Source of the DNA: Patescibacteria group bacterium
Lineage (GTDB): Bacteria; Patescibacteriota; Patescibacteriia; CAIXNZ01
NCBI GenBank assembly: GCA_041651155.1
Contig: JBAZJU010000002.1
Span: 89,852 to 153,851, forward strand
Length of the DNA: 64,000 bases
Direction: 5' to 3'
Within the stretch, counting starts at the first letter, position 1, and every line of letters begins with the position of its first letter. This document shows, piece by piece, positions 34,510 through 63,665 of this stretch. The notes under the pieces were generated by a model. The model had not been told where the DNA came from. It worked only from the letters and a program-made list of their open reading frames with translations, and made no database searches. The translations under genes were made by a program, and so were the position numbers.

Positions 34510-35547
34510 CTATATTAGGGGATTTTGGGAATTTTCAAGCCTTGGTTTTAAGCCCAGATGTTCATAGGCTAATTTAGTCGCGGTTCGTCCTTTAGGTGTG
34601 CGATTTAAAAAACCCAGTTGCATTAAAAATGGCTCATAAATGTCTTCAAGCGTCTCCATTTCCTCGCTTGAGGCCGCGGCCAGTGTATTTAAGCCAACAG
34701 GACCGCCTGAGAATTTTTCAATAATAATTTCTAAAATTTTGCGATCTATTCCATCCAGGCCGAGTTCATCTATTTCCAATAAAGCTAAGGCTTCTTTGGC
34801 CATTGGTTCTGAAATTTTGCCATCTGCTTTAACCTGGGCATAGTCACGAACGCGTTTGAGTAAACGGTTGGCCACGCGCGGTGTTTTTCTGGCGCGCTGG
34901 GCAATGAGCTGGCAGGCAATTGGTTCAATTTCTGTATCTAAAATTTTGGCATTGCGTTCAATAATTTTTTTAATATCTTCATCCTGATAAAAATCCAATC
35001 TGAAAGTGGCGCCAAAGCGGTCGCGCAAGGGAGAAGAAATTAAACTTACGCGCGTGGTGGCGCCGATTAAGGTAAATTTGGGCAGATCTAATCTTAAAGT
35101 TCTGGCACTTGGTCCTTTGCCAATTACAATATCCAGGGCATAATCTTCCATAGCTGGATAAAGCACTTCTTCAATCACTTTATTTAAACGGTGGATTTCA
35201 TCAATAAATAAAATATCACCATTGGCCAAGTTAGTTAATATCGCTGCCAGATCACCAGTCCGTTCAATAGCTGGACCAGAGGTGACTTTAATATTTGCGC
35301 CCATTTCATTGGCAATCACATGGGCCAAAGTTGTTTTGCCCAAGCCAGGACAGCCATGCAGTAAAACATGCTCAATTGGCTCGCCTCGCTTTTTAGCGGC
35401 AGCCATAAAAATTTCCAAATTATCTTTGACTTTATTTTGGCCAATATATTCATTTAATTTTTTCGGCCGCAAAGATTTCTCAAACGCTACTTCTTCAGCT
35501 GACTCTTTGGTGGAAACTATGCGGTTTTGGTCTTGTTTTTTAGGCAT
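34510..35547 (-). CDS. ruvB: Holliday junction branch migration helicase RuvB
   Basis: [22 protein letters not shown] (Walker A), IDEIHRL (sensor), C-terminal winged helix. Confidence 0.9.
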
Positions 35548-35631
35548 AATTTAATTTTATCTTATCTGTTTTTGAGTAAAAAAACAAGGCAATTTAAAAA
35601 GGAATTACTCTAAGTAATCCCTTTTGTTTTT

Positions 35632-36165
35632 TTATTCTGCACAAAGCGCCTTTACTGCTTCTATAAAATCGCGTTGATAATCATTCTCGTTTTCCAGTAT
35701 CCTTTCTTCATTTCCCCCAATGAATAAATATTTTCTTATCACTTTTTTTGCTTCTTTAGTGAAAAGTATTATTTTTTTAGGGTCCCTCCTTATTATTTTA
35801 AAAATATTGCGCGCTGTTTTTTCTCCGCCTATTTTTAAGGCTTTTTCAATAATTTTGTCGTCTGGCGGAGGAAAAGAATATTTCAGGTGCAGGCACGCAA
35901 AAAATGCCCTTTGATTTTCTTCCTTGCAATCTGCCCGAGCCTCCCAGGTAAAATTGTTTTCTCCATTGCATGCCCTGTCTGTATAGTCAAAAAGACTCGG
36001 CTTATTGCTAAAAAATTTGTCCATCAATATACTCCGCGCTTTTAAACTAAGGACGTTGAAATTACTGCCCCAAAGTAAAATTATATCGCGAAGAATATTC
36101 CCATCGCTTTCTTCAATAATAGTTTCAATAACCTTTTTTCCTGTTAGCTTATTTAGGTGCTTCAT
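35632..36165 (-). CDS. Hypothetical protein (about 177 aa from ATG 36165)
   Basis: GGAGGAA RBS before ATG (MKHLNKL); upstream shares the leader motif with the next two genes. Confidence 0.35.
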   Translation of the reverse strand: MKHLNKLTGKKVIETIIEESDGNILRDIILLWGSNFNVLSLKARSILMDKFFSNKPSLFDYTDRACNGENNFTWEARADCKEENQRAFFACLHLKYSFPPPDDKIIEKALKIGGEKTARNIFKIIRRDPKKIILFTKEAKKVIRKYLFIGGNEERILENENDYQRDFIEAVKALCAE

Positions 36166-36523
36166 TTTTTCCTCCTTCGGCCGCTTCGCAGCTGGCTTTG
36201 CCACTGTCTTTAGTCGATATGACTGGCCAGATAGTTAAACAATCAGCTTTGCCTTTATCATCCATTTTCCGAAACCAAAAACGAAAGTCTCTAACCTTGG
36301 TTTTACCAGTTATCATGGGCAGTATAATTTGGGCAGTATCATACCAGTTTAGGTAAACATTTCTTAGTTGTAATGCACTTTTAATATCTTCGTAGCAAAC
36401 AGAAGTATCTGCTGGTAAATTAACCAAATATTCCTTGAGAGCAATTTTTGCTAGTTTAATAATTGTGGGGTGAATTTTTTCTTCGCGCACATTTTTGTCA
36501 GGTTTTTGTTCTTGATTTGTCAT
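36149..36523 (-). CDS. Hypothetical small protein (about 124 aa from ATG 36523)
   Basis: AAGGAGAAAAAA then ATG (MTNQEQK); preceded by a conserved roughly 115-nt cassette. Confidence 0.35.
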   Translation of the reverse strand: MTNQEQKPDKNVREEKIHPTIIKLAKIALKEYLVNLPADTSVCYEDIKSALQLRNVYLNWYDTAQIILPMITGKTKVRDFRFWFRKMDDKGKADCLTIWPVISTKDSGKASCEAAEGGKNEAPK

Positions 36524-36650
36524 TTTTTTCTCCTTCGGCGCCTTGCGCATTTTTAAGTTGTCAAAGTTACAAACCAATTTTCAGCCCGCGACAACTTGTC
36601 TCGGCCTGGAAAAAGGGGGCGACTCGGAGTCGCCCGGAATGATGTGTGAT
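36524..36650 (-). repeat. Terminator-promoter-leader cassette copy A
   Basis: ccgggcgactccgagtcgccccctttt hairpin, then ttgacaacttaaaaatgcgcaaggcgccgaaggagaaaaaaATG; about 90% identical to 37037..37165. Confidence 0.6.
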
Positions 36651-36664
36651 TGTCCGATAATATT

Positions 36665-37036
36665 TTACTCGTAGTCTATTCTTGGACAGTGATTACGCAG
36701 CCGTTTTTGGATTGGTTTCCAAATAAAATCAATGATCAAATTATAGACTATCCAAGCTAGGACAGCTAAAACGCAGAATGTTGGCAATGTTATAAGAGTA
36801 AGCTTGGCTTCTTGGGGGTGAGTCAAAATAGCCGTTATCACGATAGCCAAAGACCCAACAGTTAAAAACATAGTCACGAAGATTGAACAAAATATAGCCA
36901 AGATGCTATAAAGATACGAGCATAGCGTTTGAGGCATCTTGCCGTCAAGCTCTTCGCAGGTGGGCGGGAAACGAAAATCCCTCCCCTCGCTCCAATAGAT
37001 TAAACGATAATGCCAGGACTTTTTATTGATCTTCAT
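36665..37036 (-). CDS. Hypothetical small membrane protein (about 123 aa from ATG 37036)
   Basis: AAGGAGAAAAAA then ATG (MKINKK); two TM helices. Confidence 0.35.
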   Translation of the reverse strand: MKINKKSWHYRLIYWSEGRDFRFPPTCEELDGKMPQTLCSYLYSILAIFCSIFVTMFLTVGSLAIVITAILTHPQEAKLTLITLPTFCVLAVLAWIVYNLIIDFIWKPIQKRLRNHCPRIDYE

Positions 37037-37165
37037 TTTTTTCTCCTTCGGCGCTTTGCGCCTTTTTAAGTTGTCAAAGTTACAAACCAATTTTCAGCCC
37101 GCGATACTTTATCGTGGCCTGGAAAAAGGGGGCGGGTTGCATAACGGCTTCGCCCATGAGTTGTC
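37037..37165 (-). repeat. Terminator-promoter-leader cassette copy B
   Basis: Same roughly 115-nt element as 36524..36650, including the inverted repeat aagttgtc...gacaactt and the TTGACA box. Confidence 0.6.
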
Positions 37166-37185
37166 TATTTTTTTGAAAATACTTG

Positions 37186-37368
37186 TTATCCTTCGCCTGC
37201 TTTTTTTACTGCGTAAAATAGGACAGCCCACCATGCTCCAAAGAATATTGTCATTAGAAATAGGGTTTTTATAGCAGGTAGGGCTTCGGCCCCAAATGAT
37301 TCCCATTGTAGTAGACTGATTGCGCCTACAAAAAGTAAAGCTTGCGAAAATATTTTAATTCCCCACAT
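37186..37368 (-). CDS. Small (60 aa) two-TM membrane protein
   Basis: GGAGGAG RBS 7 nt before ATG; two hydrophobic helices. Confidence 0.4.
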   Translation of the reverse strand: MWGIKIFSQALLFVGAISLLQWESFGAEALPAIKTLFLMTIFFGAWWAVLFYAVKKAGEG

Positions 37369-37626
37369 TACTGCTCCTCCTTTGGTTGATTTGTGAAGAT
37401 CTCACCTTGCCCATTTTGCAAGATATTAAATTATATCTGGGAATTTAATTTTAGTCAATGATTACCGCCTATTATAGATAAATTAAAACATTAAATATGG
37501 CTAAAATGGCTAATTATATTGACAAATTTGCCAAATATGCTATACTTCAATTAGTAGTCGGAATTTTACGAATATTATCAACAGAGGTTCGGCCTCCAAA
37601 TTGGAGGCCGAACCTCGGAAATCCAC

Positions 37627-38370
37627 ATGAATACCAAAGAAGCTTTAGAACAAATTGATATTATTGGCAAAAAAGCAGATATCTATCTGGCTTGTTTGGA
37701 AATGGGCGGGGCAACTGCTTATTCCATTGCCAAAAAAGTGGGACTAAAAAGGCCCACTGTTTATGATATTTTAAGCCAGCTCTTAAATGAGGGGCTGGTT
37801 TATAAATCTTTAAAAGCCAAGAAAAAATATTATTTTCCTGCTGATCCAGGAAGATTATTAAAGAAAGCCAAAGAAAAAGAAGAGAATATCAAGGCGATTT
37901 TGCCTGAACTGGAAAATTTATATAATGCGCCGAAAATTAAGCCAACCATTAAATATTTTGAAGGCAAAGAAGGTATTAAAGAAATGTACAATGACAGTTT
38001 AAAAAGTTTGAAAAAAGGGGATGAGATTTTGGGTTATGTGGGTGAAGGAATATTGCAGTATTTGCCTAAATATTCAGATGAGTATATCGCCGAAAGAGTA
38101 GCTAAGGGAATCAGATTCAGGGGGATATATAAAAAAGAAAAGGGCATTATGGAATATATGGCGAAAAATCAGGAGCAATTACGCACTGTCAGACTTTTAG
38201 ATCATAAGGATTTTCCGGTCAATAATGAAACCAATATTTACGCCAATAAAATTGCGATTGCCAGTTATGGCAAGGAAATGTTTGCCATGATCATTGAATC
38301 AGAAGAAATTGCCAGGGCGCAAAGGGCAATTTTTGAGCTGGCTTGGAGAGGCGCAGAGGGCTTGGAATAA
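37627..38370 (+). CDS. TrmB-family transcriptional regulator
   Basis: N-terminal wHTH AYSIAKKVGLKRPTVYDILSQLLNEGLV is typical of TrmB sugar-responsive regulators. Confidence 0.55.
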   Translation: MNTKEALEQIDIIGKKADIYLACLEMGGATAYSIAKKVGLKRPTVYDILSQLLNEGLVYKSLKAKKKYYFPADPGRLLKKAKEKEENIKAILPELENLYNAPKIKPTIKYFEGKEGIKEMYNDSLKSLKKGDEILGYVGEGILQYLPKYSDEYIAERVAKGIRFRGIYKKEKGIMEYMAKNQEQLRTVRLLDHKDFPVNNETNIYANKIAIASYGKEMFAMIIESEEIARAQRAIFELAWRGAEGLE

Positions 38371-38465: not shown

Positions 38466-38538
38466 GCGGGTGTAGTTCAGTGGCTAGAACGTTTCCTTGC
38501 CAAGGAAAAGGTCGCCGGTTCAAATCCGGTCACCCGCT
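38466..38538 (+). tRNA. tRNA-Gly (anticodon GCC)
   Basis: Cloverleaf GCGGGTG/CACCCGC acceptor, anticodon loop TTGCCAA, T-loop GGTTCAAATCC; no encoded CCA. Confidence 0.8.
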
Positions 38539-38591
38539 CAAGAAGTTTCAAAAATAAACAAAAAGTTATCAGAAAAGACAGGAGATAATAT

Positions 38592-39132: not shown

Positions 39133-39218
39133 GCCGAGGTGGTGAAACTGGTATACACGAAGGACTTAAAATCCTTTGGAGTTAAACCTCCGTGCGGGTT
39201 CGAGTCCCGCCCTCGGCA
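39133..39218 (+). tRNA. tRNA-Leu (anticodon TAA), class II with long variable arm
   Basis: GCCGAGG/CCTCGGC acceptor, anticodon loop CTTAAAA, variable arm GGAGTTAAACCTCC, T-loop GGGTTCGAGTCCC. Confidence 0.8.
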
Positions 39219-39326
39219 CTATTCTTCTAAATTGAAGAAGTGTTCTTTTACTACTTTTATAAACAGATTGACTCTCTTTTTGAGGGTCTTTTTGTTTTTT
39301 TAGCAAAATTAGCTATAATAAACTAT

Positions 39327-41329: not shown

Positions 41330-41710
41330 TTATTTCGCCTCCTTTGCAGGCGCATTGACTGCCTTTAACCAGCCGCCCAGCATTTGGCCGACAGAATTTA
41401 AAGCTTCTTGGATTTCACTATATTTTGCCTCGCTAAGATTTTTTAAATCCTTGGCCATATTGGCAAAAACTTTCAGCGTGTCTAGCTTTCTCAGAGCCTG
41501 GATTAAAGTGTGTTTCTTTTCCTCCTTGCCTTGCCTGGTGGCAATGACAATGAGTTCCAAAATTTCTAAGATTGTAATTTCAGAACTTTTTCTTAAAGTG
41601 TTTTCTTCATTTTTTGAGATTTCGCCAGCCTCTTTATAGAGGTCATAGGTTTTATCTAAAATGGGGAATTTCTCAGAAAAATTCTCCAAAATGTCTTTGT
41701 ATTTTTGCAT
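41330..41710 (-). CDS. Hypothetical helical protein (126 aa)
   Basis: ATG-initiated ORF, predicted all-alpha; no family recognised. Confidence 0.3.
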   Translation of the reverse strand: MQKYKDILENFSEKFPILDKTYDLYKEAGEISKNEENTLRKSSEITILEILELIVIATRQGKEEKKHTLIQALRKLDTLKVFANMAKDLKNLSEAKYSEIQEALNSVGQMLGGWLKAVNAPAKEAK

Positions 41711-41806
41711 AGGTTTTGTTTTTAATTTTTAGGATTTGGTTTGATTAATTAGTTCGACCTTTAATTATTTAATTATGAACTAAGAGATATGAAATATGAG
41801 ATGTTG

Positions 41807-42154
41807 CTAATAATACTTTTTTTGTAATGTTTTAACACTTTTGACTAGTATTTTGATTATTTCTTCGATTTCATCTAATAATTTAGATGCTCTTTCTTTC
41901 TTTATTAAATCAGCATCAATTGACATTAGTAGCCAACTTTTGGTCTCCTTAGCCTCCTTTCTTGAAATATTTAAGTAATAAGTAAATTCTTTTTTACTTA
42001 AAGAATTTTTTGCGTGAATTATGTTTGAATTTATAGACGTTCCAGATCGGATTAATTGTTTGCCTATAATAAAGGCGGCCGTAGTCTTTGGGAATTGATT
42101 CACTAATTTAATTGTGTTGATCGCAAAATTGTAGGTTCTTATTTCGGTATCCAT
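41807..42154 (-). CDS. Four-helix-bundle protein (PF05635/TIGR02436, Avd-like family), intact
   Basis: ...FIIGKQLIRSGTSINSNIIHAKNSLSKKEFTYYLNISRKEAKETKSWLLMS... matches the family core; flanked by imperfect inverted repeats. Confidence 0.6.
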   Translation of the reverse strand: MDTEIRTYNFAINTIKLVNQFPKTTAAFIIGKQLIRSGTSINSNIIHAKNSLSKKEFTYYLNISRKEAKETKSWLLMSIDADLIKKERASKLLDEIEEIIKILVKSVKTLQKKYY

Positions 42155-42204
42155 ATTGAATTAATTAATAATAAATCTCATATCTCATAGTTCATAATTC
42201 ATAG

Positions 42205-44847
42205 TTAAGTTTTTGGCTTTCGGAATTTATATATGACCGCAGCCAAACTTAGTGCCAAAAACACAGCAGATGCAATTAAGTATTTCAAAACCGAATTTCC
42301 TAATTTATTGGGTGGAATTTGCGTGGAGGCTTCAGGGGCAGGGATTATTTGTTTTTCAATATCTGCTTCAGACCGAGGTAGTATTCTGTATTCTTCATTA
42401 TTTTTACTCAAGATGCCGGTAATTTTCAAATTATCTCCTTCAGCAAAATTAGCTTTGTTGATTTTGGTATTAGTTTTAAAATAAATTTCCGCTTCCCCGC
42501 TTTCATCTTTGATCATAAATTTTGAGCCATTTTTATCTAAAAGCAGTCCGGTAATTTGTACTAAATAACCGACTAGATCATTGTTAATTTCTTGAGAGGT
42601 TATAATTTTTGGTTGTGGCGGATCTTGATTTGAAATAACTTTAATATCTTGGGCAGACGCCAGTTTAATTCGTTTTTCACCCAAGGCTTCACTCAAGGTG
42701 CCGTTTAAATCCACTAAATCCCCGATTTTCAGATCAGGCCAGTTAGCTTTTGACATATAAACCTGAATGCCAGAACCAGCTACATACATCATGGTTTTAC
42801 CAAAAATATTTGGCAGGACTGAAACAACGCCCTGGGTTTTGACTAATGTGCCAACAGCCAAATTTTTAATATCTTTTAAATCAACTGAGACGACTTTTTT
42901 TGCGCTTGATTTTTTAGCAGTACTTTTTACAGCAGTGCTTTTGGCTGTTTGGGCGCTAACTTCACTCCCGCTTGATTCTGTAGTTGCAGTAATTTTAATC
43001 TTTTGGGCTTCTTTAGTTTCCAGCTGTCCATCACTCACTATTAAAGTAATTGAATAGGTGCCTTTTTGTTTGAATTGGTGCTGGGCAATCACAGAAGCAT
43101 AAGATTGGTCTTCTATTTGCCAGGTAAAATTTAATTCATCATCTTCCAGATCAAATGAATCTGAAGCATCACAGGTGATTATTTCATTAATATTGGCTGT
43201 CTTAGGACAATCAAGATTAATTTCCGGCGCATGGTTTAACTTGGTCAAAACATTTTCTTTGCCCGGGGTTGGCGTAATTGTCCAAAACCAGTAGCCATTT
43301 TCATCTTGGATATAAGAAGTATTTTCTGGCACATTCTCATCCTCGCTATATTTTACTGTTTGAATGGTTTTATCATCAGGGGAAATTAATTTTAGAGTTT
43401 CTTTGTCATTGTTTAAAGCCAGGCCGCTGATTTTTCTTTCAATAGCTAAGAATTCATTGGGTTTGAGAATGGTTGTTGTAAAATCATTTATAGAAATTCT
43501 ATATTTTTTCTTACTTGCATCCTGAATTTGCCAACCCTTTAGGTCTGCTTCTTGGTCGCCTGTATTTTTTAATTCAATGAACTCAAATTCCAGGTCAGAA
43601 CCGGGCGGATTAGGAAAAAGTTCATTTATAACAATTTTATCTTTAATTTTTTGCTTGCTTTCTTTGTCTGTTGTTTCAGTCGCTGTTTTACTTTTTTCTT
43701 CCTCTGTTAAAGAAATTATATTTGCTTCACCTTTAGTCGGTGTTTGGGTAACTGCGAAGTCATTTTTATTATTGAAAGTTTCAGCACCGTCAAAAATCCT
43801 GGCTGTGGAATCTGGGTCTTTGGCGACAGGCGCGTTATTCTCGGGGAAGCCATTATCCCAGTTGCCGTAAAAGACAGCATCAATAATATTATTTTTATCA
43901 TCTTTTAAAATTATGGCATCGCCGCTATTATTTAATTTGCCCTTAGGATTCTCAATGACCAGAAATTTATTATCAAAATTTGAGCCGATTGTACCAGTCA
44001 GATTGGTTTGCGCGCCTGAGCCGTCAGTGATTGTATAGCCGGCCAAATCAATATCAAAAATATTTTTATTGTAAAGTTCTAGCCATTCCACTTCTCCATC
44101 AGCCGGATCTGAGACAAACTCATTAATTACTAAGGTTCCGGAGGAAACAATTTTTCTGTTGCTTGAGGTTGAAGCAAGGGGATTGTCTTCCGGTTGAGGA
44201 TCATCGGCCGGCGGTTGATCAGGCGGCGGGTCGTCTGTGGGAGGCTCATCTGCCGGAGGATCGTCATCGGGCGGCGGGTCATCAGCCGGCGGCGGGTCAA
44301 TCGGAGGCTGATTTGGAAATTCATTGGCCTTGCCAGCGGAATTGGCAGCGGCATGAACTTGCCAGTTAGCCGTTGTATAATCATTTAAATTTAAATCAAC
44401 TCTTTGCAAAGAAGTGTCAGGGCAAGGCAAATAAGTAAAAATTTCAATGGTTTCGCCGGCAGAATTTTTTAAGCCAATTTCTTCGCCATCTTCGCGCAAA
44501 CTGGACCAGGAGCTATCAATAATTGTGCCAGTAAAGTCAGAATATTTTTGTTTGAACAAATCAGCTTTGTTGGCGATGATGGCATATTCACCTGGATCAA
44601 TGATTAAATCGTTTTGGAATGCGCTTAAGCGGTGATTAGTCTGGTCTTCGTAAAATTTCCAGTTAGTTAAATCAACCGGTTCTGCGCCTTTATTATAAAT
44701 TTCCACCCATTCATTGTCGCTTGTTTCATATGCGCCGATTTCTGAGATGACAATATCAGAATCAGCAGCGTAAGCATAAATCGGGAAATTAAAAAATCCC
44801 AACAATAATAAAGTTAGGACCGCAAATCTTTGTTTTTTGTTTTTCAT
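42205..44847 (-). CDS. Cell-surface protein with three lamin-tail domains (LTD), PKD-like domain, Pro/Asp-rich linker, OB-like domain and C-terminal TM anchor
   Basis: LTD signatures IVISEIGAYETSDNEWVEIYNKGAEPVDLTNWKF, LVINEFVSDPADGEVEWLELYNKN...DLAGYTI and IVINELFPNPPGSDLEFEFIELKNTGDQEADLKGWQI; PPxDDPPP linker; C-terminal hydrophobic helix then KFRKPKT. Confidence 0.55.
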   Translation of the reverse strand: MKNKKQRFAVLTLLLLGFFNFPIYAYAADSDIVISEIGAYETSDNEWVEIYNKGAEPVDLTNWKFYEDQTNHRLSAFQNDLIIDPGEYAIIANKADLFKQKYSDFTGTIIDSSWSSLREDGEEIGLKNSAGETIEIFTYLPCPDTSLQRVDLNLNDYTTANWQVHAAANSAGKANEFPNQPPIDPPPADDPPPDDDPPADEPPTDDPPPDQPPADDPQPEDNPLASTSSNRKIVSSGTLVINEFVSDPADGEVEWLELYNKNIFDIDLAGYTITDGSGAQTNLTGTIGSNFDNKFLVIENPKGKLNNSGDAIILKDDKNNIIDAVFYGNWDNGFPENNAPVAKDPDSTARIFDGAETFNNKNDFAVTQTPTKGEANIISLTEEEKSKTATETTDKESKQKIKDKIVINELFPNPPGSDLEFEFIELKNTGDQEADLKGWQIQDASKKKYRISINDFTTTILKPNEFLAIERKISGLALNNDKETLKLISPDDKTIQTVKYSEDENVPENTSYIQDENGYWFWTITPTPGKENVLTKLNHAPEINLDCPKTANINEIITCDASDSFDLEDDELNFTWQIEDQSYASVIAQHQFKQKGTYSITLIVSDGQLETKEAQKIKITATTESSGSEVSAQTAKSTAVKSTAKKSSAKKVVSVDLKDIKNLAVGTLVKTQGVVSVLPNIFGKTMMYVAGSGIQVYMSKANWPDLKIGDLVDLNGTLSEALGEKRIKLASAQDIKVISNQDPPQPKIITSQEINNDLVGYLVQITGLLLDKNGSKFMIKDESGEAEIYFKTNTKINKANFAEGDNLKITGILSKNNEEYRILPRSEADIEKQIIPAPEASTQIPPNKLGNSVLKYLIASAVFLALSLAAVIYKFRKPKT

Positions 44848-45158
44848 AGATTTTATTTTTATTTTATTTATACTTTTAGCATAGCAAACAAAATTTTAGG
44901 GTCAATATTAATTTGGGCTGAGATTTTGTTAGAAATGATTAGATGATTTATACACACAGGAAAACAAAAACCTCCCTTGTTCTTTAGAGCAAGGCGAAGA
45001 ATCATCTATTCATCATTATATGCGGAATGATAAAAGAGGCGGATTTTTGTTAAAAATTTTTAACAGCTAATTTTTATTTTTGGGGATAAATTTTAATTTG
45101 CAATTTTAGAAATTTTGCATTAAGATATAATTCTGGACTTTAACAAAGGAGGAGTAGA

Positions 45159-63547: not shown

Positions 63548-63665
63548 GGCCTTCGGCCCAGGGATTCGAACCCTGGACCCACTGCTTAAGAGGCAGTTGC
63601 TCTACCAGCCCCAAAGGGGAGCCTTTGGCTCTGAGCTATTTACCTCAAAATTAATTTTTAATATT
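63548..63665 (-). tRNA. tRNA-Lys(CTT)-like element carrying two copies of a 24-nt palindromic insert (probable pseudo-tRNA)
   Basis: GCTCAGAG..GGTAGAGC D-arm, ACTGC CTCTTAA GCAGT anticodon arm, GGGTCCAGGGTTCGAATCCCTGG T-arm and CCGGGTCAC 3' acceptor. AGCCAAAGGCTCCCCTTTGGGGCT sits in the D-loop and GGCCGAAGGCCCCCCTTTGGGGCC between T-stem and acceptor; no complementary 5' acceptor strand found. Confidence 0.35.

Follow-up and report, generated by a model that had tools for sequence, protein, structure and literature searches.

The DNA analysed here, referred to as the window, comprises 64,000 nt of contig JBAZJU010000002.1 (GCA_041651155.1, positions 89,852-153,851 of the forward strand) from a Patescibacteria group bacterium of CAIXNZ01. 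It contains an array of small genes, coding mostly for membrane proteins, which extends from the gene of a TrmB-like winged-helix regulator (37627-38370, plus strand) to ruvB. The array genes are encoded on the minus strand in the order g1, g2, g3 and g4, followed by ruvB. A sigma-70-type promoter, TTGACT-17-TATAAT (37430-37458, minus strand, 11/12 matches), is located at the array head, divergent from the TrmB-like gene, and is conserved in the related loci L002, L030, L051, L060 and L061. The bona fide promoters of the window and of the related loci are near-consensus (11-12/12 matches). Small inserted palindromes are also found nearby (37584-37616). The array ends with an AT-rich intrinsic terminator (gggattacttagagtaattcc followed by ttttt; 35596-35625, minus strand), which L002, L008 and L060 share at the end of their arrays.

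All four array genes lie on the minus strand. g1 (37186-37368) encodes a predicted membrane protein of 60 aa with an orthologue in L008, and g2 (36665-37036) a membrane protein of 123 aa with homologues in L002 and L008 (59-61% identity). g3 and g4 encode soluble proteins: g3 (36149-36523) is an ORFan of 124 aa, and g4 (35632-36165) codes for an all-helical protein of 177 aa of unknown function, which has a homologue in L002. No significant match in Pfam, PADLOC or NCBIfam was found for g1-g4, and the only significant family match was that of g2 to phrog_944 of PHROGs (E 8e-14). For g3 no homologue could be identified among 5.8 billion proteins or in viral contigs, and a Foldseek structure search gave no match at E<1; the single-sequence AlphaFold models were too poor for use (pLDDT 55 for g3 and 43 for g4). 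The arrays of the loci compared contain 4-8 genes, many of which encode single-helix peptides of 33-70 aa with charged tails, some of them only 33-45 aa long.

A repeated module, which has the same orientation as the genes, is located in front of g2 (module A) and g3 (module B). Two long copies, 36520-36621 and 37033-37134, can be aligned over 102 nt without a gap at 92% identity, and they are completely identical across a core of 38 nt and across the 21 nt of the SD/ATG context, which exceeds chance (0/100 shuffles). The initial annotation had put the identity at about 90%. This holds for the 102 nt, but over the longer intervals which it compared (36524-36650 and 37037-37165) the gapped identity is only 80.6%, because the terminator hairpins differ. 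It had also listed a partial third copy. That copy C (36163-36192, minus strand) does share the small H3-type hairpin (gctgc-gaa-gcggc), the SD gaaggagg and the ATG of g4, but it covers only about 25-34 nt and lies inside the 3' end of g3, overlapping its last codons. The other elements which had been described, a GC-rich hairpin with a T-run, the TTGACA and the SD-start context cgccgaaggagaaaaaaATG, are all found in the sequence, and the repeated unit does contain a terminator-like hairpin and a structured leader. Its description as a non-coding unit in front of unrelated genes also agrees with our data, as the four array proteins gave no blastp match among each other at E<=10.

From 5' to 3' on the minus strand each module comprises a first hairpin (T1), a second hairpin (H2), an invariant box, a third hairpin (H3) and the translation start of the next gene. 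T1 is positioned about 33-35 nt past the stop codon of the upstream gene. In module A, for which the covariance model matches 37062-37155, T1 is a GC-rich hairpin with a large loop (gggcg..cgccc, 37130-37155, -9.2 kcal/mol), followed by the U-run cccccTTTTTcc (37123-37127), which can alternatively pair with GAAAAU to form the lower part of H2 (H2x). Folding and alignment place H2 (ccaggcc-a-cgata-aag-tatcg-c-gggctg) at 37095-37122. The box TAACTTTGACAACTT (37068-37082) is flanked by gaaaattggtttg (37083-37095) and aaaaa (37063-37067). The predicted H3 (ggcgc-aaa-gcgcc, 37050-37062) lies directly 5' of the SD gaaggag, the A-rich spacer and the ATG of g2 (37034-37049). Module B starts with T1 (gggcgactccgagtcgccc followed by ccTTTTTcc, 36617-36635; 8 pairs, 6 of them GC; -14.7 kcal/mol), which was scored as terminator-like with a GC-rich stem-loop and a run of 5 U within 2 nt. 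It continues with H2 (ccaggccg-a-gaca-agt-tgtc-g-cgggctg, 36582-36609, again from folding and alignment), the same box (36555-36569), a predicted H3 ((t)gcgc-aag-gcgc(c), 36537-36549) and the SD gaaggag, spacer and ATG of g3 (36521-36536). Six of the eight substitutions between A and B fall in H2, where the pairing is retained. The GC content of the modules is 48-50%, compared to 37% for the genome.

In the 64-kb window a covariance model matched exactly these two copies (E 1e-19 and 2e-18) and nothing else. The conservation outside this locus on which the initial annotation had made its proposal depend was found: in arrays syntenic to that of the window, the module is also present at eight loci of this kind on related Patescibacteria metagenome contigs (L002, L008, L024, L030, L037, L051, L060 and L061). 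The alignment comprises 14 distinct copies, which are related to one another. Every copy is on the gene strand, between co-directional genes and inside a small-gene array; scans of about 132 kb (the window plus about 68 kb of related loci) with the covariance model and with fuzzy patterns revealed none elsewhere in the window or in the sequences flanking the arrays. Decayed copies and fragments are L002_2, L060_2, L061_3 and a fossil after the 68-aa gene of L061. A TrmB-like gene adjoins the array in every module-bearing locus in which the contig reaches the array head (the window, L002, L030, L037, L051, L060 and L061). More distant TrmB-linked arrays (L063, L067, L068 and L069; TrmB 67-72% identical) also consist of small genes, and no module was found in them, so that they contributed nothing to the covariation analysis. 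At gathering score Rfam 15 recognised only tRNAs in the window and nothing at E<=1 in the region 35500-37700. The exact pattern GCTGAAAATTGGTTTGTAAC had no match in viral contigs, whereas TAACTTTGACAACTTNAAAA had 12 matches in GTDB species genomes and three in IMG/VR, all of them chance matches, those in GTDB being without flanking module sequence. Neither the locus nor the element was described in the literature searched. The module is a real, conserved and undescribed cis element.

T1 is a GC hairpin followed by 4-6 U in 10 of the 14 copies, and in L051_2 and L060_2 it is replaced by another hairpin at the same position. With its GC-rich stem-loop and U-tract it has the make-up of an intrinsic terminator, termination itself being predicted. 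The U-run is absent in 3-4 copies (those with the type II linker); T1 is therefore not always a terminator.

The core of H2 consists of 12 pairs. In the alignment 85.7% of its cells are paired, compared to 26-49% with slid partners, and 0/500 shuffles reach the observed pairing, although the shuffle controls overstate the significance because the sample of 14 interrelated copies is small. Double compensatory changes are seen at three pairs (12-18, U-A to C-G; 5-25; 8-22), which is the kind of covariation for which the initial annotation had suggested related leaders be searched. RNAalifold recovers T1 and H2 independently. H2 can be extended to about 20 pairs (76% of cells paired), with the U-run pairing with GAAAAU; in the extension U-A in nine copies changes to C-G in three, in step with the linker type. 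On the sense strand G-U cells outnumber A-C cells by 15 to 7 in the core (counted manually in alignment A2), whereas in the extended helix the counts are 20 and 16 and the strand asymmetry is weak. Minimum free energy, centroid and RNAalifold folds all give three separate local hairpins, T1, H2 and H3. An 8-bp inverted repeat (aagttgtc/gacaactt) had been reported for each copy. It exists in copy B only, as copy A has aagtatcg, and aagttgtc is found in just two of the 14 copies (winB, which is copy B of the window, and L002_3). This pairing of the 3' arm of H2 with the box was rejected as a conserved structure, since the box is invariant while the H2 arm varies; the helices which are conserved are T1, H2 and H3.

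The box, which includes TTGACA, is invariant over its 15 nt. H3 is missing from some copies and measures about 11-14 nt or 28-37 nt in the others, in which it invariably forms a closed stem with the A-run on one side and GAAGGAG on the other. Its insertion shifts the distance from box to gene by 0-35 nt, so that only in the RNA do box and SD stay close together. The primary 5' UTRs of L002_1 and L060_1, which follow canonical promoters, likewise contain box-like sequence, H3 and SD. In thermodynamic folds the SD core is just 17-67% unpaired, which does not agree with a simple strong leader. A leader peptide or upstream ORF was rejected, as there is no conserved ATG and the variable length of H3 disrupts any frame. 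Junctions without a module are tight, SD-only couplings, and this fits modules as separators of sub-operons.

The most likely interpretation is that the module acts as RNA-level punctuation rather than as a promoter. More specifically we propose, with a probability of about 0.55 and on the basis of sequence comparison, that it is an intercistronic RNA module in which hairpins for leaky termination or processing are joined to a standard translation leader, and that it serves in addition as a recombination substrate. The single promoter at the array head would drive the whole operon. T1, usually followed by CCUUUUUCC, would be a leaky intrinsic terminator, protect the 3' end of the upstream cistron, or both, and the long irregular hairpin H2 is a candidate processing or stability element; sites cut by RNase III are irregular dsRNA of about 20 bp or more. 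The invariant box, TAACUUUGACAACUU in the transcript, would be single-stranded and A/U-rich and may have a role in translation. H3, a closed GC hairpin of variable length, would abut the SD, and the near-consensus SD GAAGGAG with A-rich spacer and ATG would provide each downstream gene with an equally strong translation-initiation region. In this way the module would attenuate and insulate expression between cassettes, and as a repeat it would supply homology for gene conversion and for the gain and loss of cassettes. The invariance of the box over 15 nt exceeds what an A/U-rich standby or processing site would need and points to a specific protein or RNA partner.

The recombination component of this proposal comes from the comparison of arrays. 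Between the window and L060 the flanking genes are similar (trmB 91%, ruvB 84% nucleotide identity), yet the array content is wholly different, and the same small genes recur with differing neighbours across the arrays. After g2, T1, H2 and the box are common to three genomes, which part exactly between the box and H3 and continue with g3, a g4 homologue or a 38-aa ORF. g3 is bounded by direct repeats of 25 nt and is missing from the syntenic L002 array, where a module directly precedes the g4 homologue. Module winB is 91% identical to modules of L024 and L037 and only 73-79% to its own positional orthologues; likewise the window copies A and B are identical over 41 and 21 nt while their positional orthologues differ. 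The types of T1, linker and H3 reassort as sub-elements. Judged from these patterns, the modules appear to reassort and homogenise independently of the flanking genes, and recombination would be the probable cause of the mosaic.

The same observations could be read as those of a DNA cassette boundary, that is a site of site-specific or preferred homologous exchange which shuffles small genes like an integrase-less integron, with the RNA features being secondary. The different array contents, the re-used genes, the exact divergence at box and H3, the ORFan g3 between its direct repeats and the similarity of winB to modules in unrelated contexts all suit this explanation, as does a promoterless array behind one promoter, comparable to Pc in integrons. 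We nevertheless consider it rather unlikely, as conservation reaches beyond the SD up to the ATG, a feature that belongs to expression, and ordinary homologous recombination between repeats accounts for the mosaics. The identical arrangement was recovered from seven contigs of different samples and thus gives no sign of ongoing rapid shuffling. The gene tables list no tyrosine or conserved recombinase next to the arrays: no Phage_integrase or IntI was found in the Pfam-annotated tables for +/-6-10 kb around them, and only L002 among the loci has a serine recombinase, which lies 2 kb past the TrmB-like gene. The attC core sites R'' (RYYYAAC) and R' (GTTRRRY) had no match on either strand of the five complete intergenic modules, and the folds give three local hairpins instead of one bottom-strand hairpin joining the ends of the element. 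With neither core sites nor integrase, attC was rejected as an identity of the module. A more far-reaching possibility, which we regard as doubtful, is that a Patescibacteria clade carries an integrase-independent gene-cassette system. Here a hypervariable small-protein array would stand under one TrmB-controlled promoter, the module of about 120 nt would be both the junction for exchange between distant lineages and an expression adaptor through which every newly arrived ORF can be translated, and a dedicated protein or RNA would read the box.

Following the initial annotation, each module would be an autonomous unit, in which T1 ends the upstream transcript, TTGACA is an internal -35 box and a shared operator co-regulates the genes; the adjacent TrmB-like protein might be the one to bind this operator. 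If the terminator-like T1 with U-run in 10 of 14 copies were efficient, a downstream promoter would be needed. The box contains TTGACA without a mismatch and is similar to the -35 region in the TrmB-like gene's own promoter (TTATATTGACAAATT), its invariance fits recognition by a protein, and the TrmB-like neighbour is kept at every array head that was reached, even at 41% identity (L037). But in no copy is there a hexamer with at least 4/6 matches to TATAAT (including A2 and T6) 16-18 bp past TTGACA, and the site expected for a -10 is occupied by the GC-rich H3 or by coding sequence, while real promoters in these loci score 11-12/12. The H3 insertions (0-35 nt) alter all DNA distances downstream of the box, box-like sequence is located downstream of the transcription start in the primary leaders of L002 and L060, and the box is non-palindromic, unlike the operator expected for a dimeric winged-helix protein. 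After a scan of every array a promoter in each unit was rejected, and co-regulation by a shared operator is not needed, because one canonical promoter, divergent from the TrmB-like gene, heads the whole array. We consider autonomous units unlikely.

A cis-antisense RNA, as in type I toxin-antitoxin systems of small membrane peptides, appears quite improbable. It would start in the downstream gene, run across the start codon and SD of that gene and end at the reverse complement of H3 with a T-run. The opposite strand of H3 with TTTTT was indeed scored as terminator-like (plus strand, 37050-37062), an A-run lies 5' of H3 in most copies, and many array genes encode the short helical peptides with charged tails mentioned above. 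At 6 of 13 junctions weak antisense promoter-like sites were found in the first 100 nt of the downstream gene (background 0.135 per 100 nt), for example at 36435-36463 on the plus strand in g3 (10/12). The matches are weak (9-10/12), though, in AT-rich DNA and in test windows picked post hoc, and g2 and several other genes after a module have no such site. Furthermore, soluble proteins of 124-184 aa are among the downstream genes, and T1, H2 and the invariant box would be left unexplained. Finally, a repeat of MITE, REP or BOX type, selfish or neutral, which accumulated by chance and has no host function is very improbable: the module is modular, hairpin-rich, about 100-150 nt long and richer in GC than the genome, decayed copies exist and other small palindromes were inserted nearby, but it has no terminal inverted repeats or target duplications, is always intercistronic and uniformly oriented to the genes, has no copies outside arrays in the 64 kb and about 68 kb of related loci, includes the next gene's SD and start codon, and its invariant box and compensatory hairpin changes indicate selection.

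Patescibacteria (CPR) are uncultured episymbionts with reduced genomes, and to our knowledge almost nothing is known of how their gene expression is controlled or how their set of surface and membrane components is renewed. The locus provides a defined conserved cis element that can be divided into the terminator-like T1, the covarying H2, the invariant box and H3 as a clamp beside the SD, within an operon whose genes are entirely different from one close relative to the next. The module is short enough to be tested directly in reporter constructs, and its covariance model can be used to find such arrays in metagenomes. If the proposed intercistronic RNA module indeed adapts and insulates expression, it shows how acquired or newborn small genes, such as the ORFan g3, join an existing transcription unit. 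If the box is instead a recombination or protein-recognition site, the locus represents a new kind of cassette system.

Among known systems, the cassette arrays of integrons (attC, e.g. the Vibrio VCR) are also rows of small ORFs, for the most part uncharacterised and without promoters of their own, which share one orientation and one upstream promoter. Between the ORFs stands a repeat of about 60-140 nt that is imperfectly palindromic. Their content is also wholly different in close relatives, and mRNA hairpins are expected to modulate downstream expression. In contrast to integrons, conservation of the module takes in the SD and ATG of the next gene, and its arrays, with 4-8 genes, are short and remain stable from one sample to the next. 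REP/BIME elements of enterobacteria, BOX elements of pneumococci and Correia elements of Neisseria are hairpin-forming intergenic repeats which stabilise 3' ends, terminate transcription in part or are cut by RNase III, and which thereby change how strongly neighbouring genes are expressed relative to one another. They are present in tens to hundreds of copies genome-wide and in both orientations, some with terminal inverted repeats or a dedicated transposase. The module resembles them in being repeated, modular and hairpin-forming between co-transcribed genes, but it was found only in one locus type and in one orientation, and it carries a translation start region.

The intercistronic regions of phage T7 contain RNase III hairpins and, in the gene-10 leader, the translational enhancer epsilon, a motif upstream of the SD with complementarity to 16S rRNA. 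As in T7, a long irregular intercistronic hairpin is followed by an A/U-rich single-stranded UAACUUU motif shortly upstream of an AAGGAG-type SD (TTTGTTTAACTTTAAGAAGGAG in T7, TTTGTAACTTTGAC...AAAAA(H3)GAAGGAG in the module). The epsilon sequence is TTAACTTTAAGAAGGAG (PMC3053225), and UAACUUU matches the UUAACUUUA-like motif at 7 of 9 positions; the 64-kb window contains no 16S rRNA gene. Unlike in T7, the identity is just 7 nt, an extra H3 stands between box and SD, and the host is a Patescibacterium without viral matches. T1 resembles Rho-independent terminators and attenuators in its GC-rich stem (8 pairs in copy B) with 5 U within 2 nt. It differs from them in that the U-run is short, flanked by C, missing in type II copies and can be sequestered in H2x, and in that it precedes conserved leader elements and not a promoter.

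The array lies on a contig of a Patescibacteria MAG (NCBI tags WC460_02650/55, ENA contig k141_2778245). Behind one canonical promoter, TTGACT-17-TATAAT (37458..37430, minus), four small minus-strand genes encode proteins of 60 aa (g1, 37368..37186, membrane), 123 aa (g2, 37036..36665, membrane), 124 aa (g3, 36523..36149) and 177 aa (g4, 36165..35632), which, as the initial annotation had noticed for the genes behind the repeats, bear no relation to one another. An AT-rich terminator and then ruvB follow 3' of g4, and a TrmB-like regulator gene (37627-38370, plus) is divergent from the array promoter. Two homologues of g2 with about 60% identity could be identified, and none of g3 among 5.8 billion proteins searched. 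Among the PHROGs, g2 (36665-37036) hits phrog_944 (E 8e-14; 'membrane protein' in the moron category), and three IMG/VR contigs (L064-L066) contain its first 13 residues (MKINKKSWHYRLI) with 92% identity.

The repeat reported in front of g2 (copy A) and g3 (copy B) is real, as a repeat search aligned the 102 nt of 36520-36621 with 37033-37134 (92% identical). The identity of about 90% claimed earlier holds for this stretch and drops to 80.6% over the longer extent first assigned to the copies, because their first hairpins differ. The two copies agree at every position of a 38-nt core and of the 21-nt SD/ATG context, and neither stretch was found in any shuffle. The supposed partial third copy, copy C in front of g4, overlaps the g3 end; it has the small GC hairpin, SD and ATG in common with the others and nothing beyond these. 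The 8-bp inverted repeat ascribed to each copy occurs in copy B and is absent from copy A; this particular stem is not supported.

An exact-pattern scan with the 15-nt box of the module (TAACTTTGACAACTTNAAAA) gave only chance matches in 185,579 species genomes and IMG/VR. In JGI metagenomes it revealed true copies in four contigs (L024, L030, L037 and L051), each within an array of small genes of this type, so that the leader is conserved beyond this locus. A covariance model made from 11 module copies has two hits and no more in the 64-kb window (E 1e-19 and 2e-18); its hits in related loci lie solely within arrays, every time on the gene strand, and more distant TrmB-linked arrays give none. 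Rfam contains no match to the module, even at E<=1, and our literature search found no paper on this element.

The terminator and structured leader proposed originally are supported. Read 5' to 3' on the gene strand, the 14 distinct copies analysed follow one plan. The first hairpin, T1 (gggcgac-loop-gtcgccc, loops of 3-16 nt), is exchanged for another hairpin family (ccgcgaacc..ggttcgcgg) in two copies, and one copy carries both in tandem. The linker that follows is of type I (CCTTTTTCC, with a U-run) in 10 of 14 copies and of type II (ATCAACTCGAG) in the other four. Next come H2, a hairpin that always measures 28 nt, and the box region GAAAAT-N7-TAACTTTGACAACTT-(A/C)AAAA, the 15-mer of which shows no change in 10 of 14 copies. 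Some copies lack the closed GC hairpin H3, and in the others it measures about 11-14 nt or 28-37 nt; the start region consists of GAAGGAG(G), an A-rich spacer and ATG.

In H2 (12 pairs) 85.7% of the cells form standard pairs versus 26-49% with slid partners, and 0 of 500 shuffles attain either the pairing or the covariation score observed. Double compensatory changes occur at three pairs (12-18, U-A/C-G; 8-22; 5-25), six of the eight substitutions between copies A and B fall in H2 with pairing kept, and RNAalifold independently recovers T1 and H2. The linker can extend H2 by pairing with sequence 3' of it; in this extension 9 copies with the type I linker have U-A where 3 copies with type II have C-G. 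G-U exceeds A-C on the sense strand, with 15 versus 7 cells in core H2 (manual count, alignment A2) and 20 versus 16 in the extended helix, which points weakly to an RNA transcribed in the sense of the genes. All leaders examined have a predicted H3, though its sequences differ. With few copies, all related to one another, the figures from these tests show a consistent structure and not proof. The linker (C/U) and the box 3' end are complementary to the SD, whose core is therefore 17-67% unpaired in predicted ensembles.

The initial annotation had proposed a promoter with a TTGACA box, which is not supported. A -10-like hexamer 16-18 bp downstream of TTGACA is missing from every copy; the expected position lies inside the GC-rich H3 or past the start codon, and genuine promoters at these loci fit the consensus at 11-12 of 12 positions. 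Insertions of H3 shift all DNA-level spacing 3' of the box, and a closed H3 stem keeps box and SD neighbours in the RNA. In L002 and L060 box-like sequence, H3 and SD lie inside the primary 5' UTR, downstream of a canonical promoter.

On the reverse strand, H3 with its T-run resembles an antisense terminator, and weak antisense promoter-like sites are present in 6 of 13 downstream genes. One of them, inside g3 (36435-36463, plus; TTGAGA-17-AATAAT, 10 of 12 matches), points at the g3 start, SD and H3/T-run. An antisense RNA of about 80 nt might arise from it.

All contigs bearing g2 homologues or reached via the TrmB-like protein have a common layout: a TrmB-like gene lies opposite a divergent promoter of canonical type, behind which come small genes, mostly for membrane proteins; a conserved terminator closes the array, in most cases with ruvB after it. 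Array content is nearly all different between genomes with close flanking genes. The window and L060 are 91% (trmB) and 84% (ruvB) identical in nucleotides, yet have no array gene in common, and the same small genes recur beside other neighbours in other arrays. Array junctions are of four kinds, namely full module, box and SD, H3 and SD, or SD only (tight coupling). The L002-type array is unchanged in seven contigs from different samples, which counts against an active shuffling system.

Copies A and B agree without a mismatch over stretches of 41 and 21 nt, while their positional orthologues differ. With the modules of L024 and L037 (the latter with a TrmB-like protein only 41% identical to that of the window) copy B shares 91% identity, versus 73-79% with the post-g2 modules of L002 and L008. 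Most combinations of T1, linker and H3 types occur. Downstream of g2, three genomes have the g2 3' flank, T1, H2 and box in common and diverge between box and H3, leading to g3, a g4 homologue or a 38-aa ORF. Taken together, these patterns indicate that the modules become homogenised and are exchanged without regard to the ORFs. The g4 homologue of L002 comes immediately after the module; in the window, 25-nt direct repeats flank g3, which with an H3/SD of its own is placed between the box and the H3/SD of g4. In L061, a 68-aa gene has right behind its stop codon the sequence ggcacaaagcgctgaaggatg (6172-6150, minus), a decayed H3 and SD leader that leads to no gene and is apparently what remains of a lost cassette.

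Several other features were seen in the neighbourhood. A perfect 16+16-nt palindrome (GAGGTTCGGCCTCCAA T TTGGAGGCCGAACCTC; 37584-37616, plus) lies between the promoter and start codon of the TrmB-like gene. The same insert occurs in L051 (1140-1175) and is lacking in L002 and L060, so that it appears to be either a small palindromic insertion or a hairpin of the leader. L030 (~815-945) and L037 (reverse complement, ~720-830) carry a MITE-like insert of about 110-130 nt, unrelated to the module, in the stretch that separates the TrmB-like gene from the array promoter; its terminal inverted repeats are cctcttgt..tcaccctgagc / gctcagggtgacaagagg. Just past the TrmB-like gene lie tRNA-Gly(GCC) (38466-38539) and tRNA-Leu(TAA) (39133-39219), both plus; on the same side L002 has an inserted serine recombinase, GIY-YIG protein and relaxase fragment, which marks the neighbourhood as a hotspot of insertion in its own right, apart from the array. 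At ~41330-44850 (L001 1677-5194), bAvd-like (PF22296) and 23S_rRNA_IVP four-helix-bundle genes adjoin an 880-aa LTD/PKD protein, a set of the kind that typically serves a diversity-generating retroelement as accessory and target genes; near the L060 and L061 arrays the same gene pair is found. A partial Rfam tRNA match at 63559-63610 (minus; 31.4 bits, model positions 9-63), without ARAGORN call, may be a tRNA fragment or pseudogene.

The module is best explained as an RNA-level intercistronic element within one operon, although the steps from structure to function are ones we infer. T1, with or without U-run, would act as a leaky terminator or 3' stabiliser, H2 with its extension as a hairpin for processing or stability, and box, H3 and SD as one standard translation-initiation region. 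Its repetition could provide a substrate for gene conversion and cassette gain or loss. Interest would rise if the box were a recognition site for recombination or a dedicated factor.

In outline the locus is like an integron array: small ORFs without promoters of their own stand behind a single promoter, their spacer is palindromic and repeated, and the content is hypervariable. However, every test for attC/IntI membership (core-site search, gene tables) was negative. REP/BIME, BOX and Correia repeats are comparable in their presumed effect on operon mRNA, but the module is undispersed, has one orientation and includes the SD. Its layout resembles that of the T7 intercistronic hairpins and gene-10 leader, and the likeness of the 15-nt box to the T7 gene-10 leader sequence TTTGTTTAACTTTAAGAAGGAG (PMC3053225) may serve as a lead only. 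The module is a genuine, conserved and lineage-restricted cis element, a new variant among the known intercistronic regulatory repeats.
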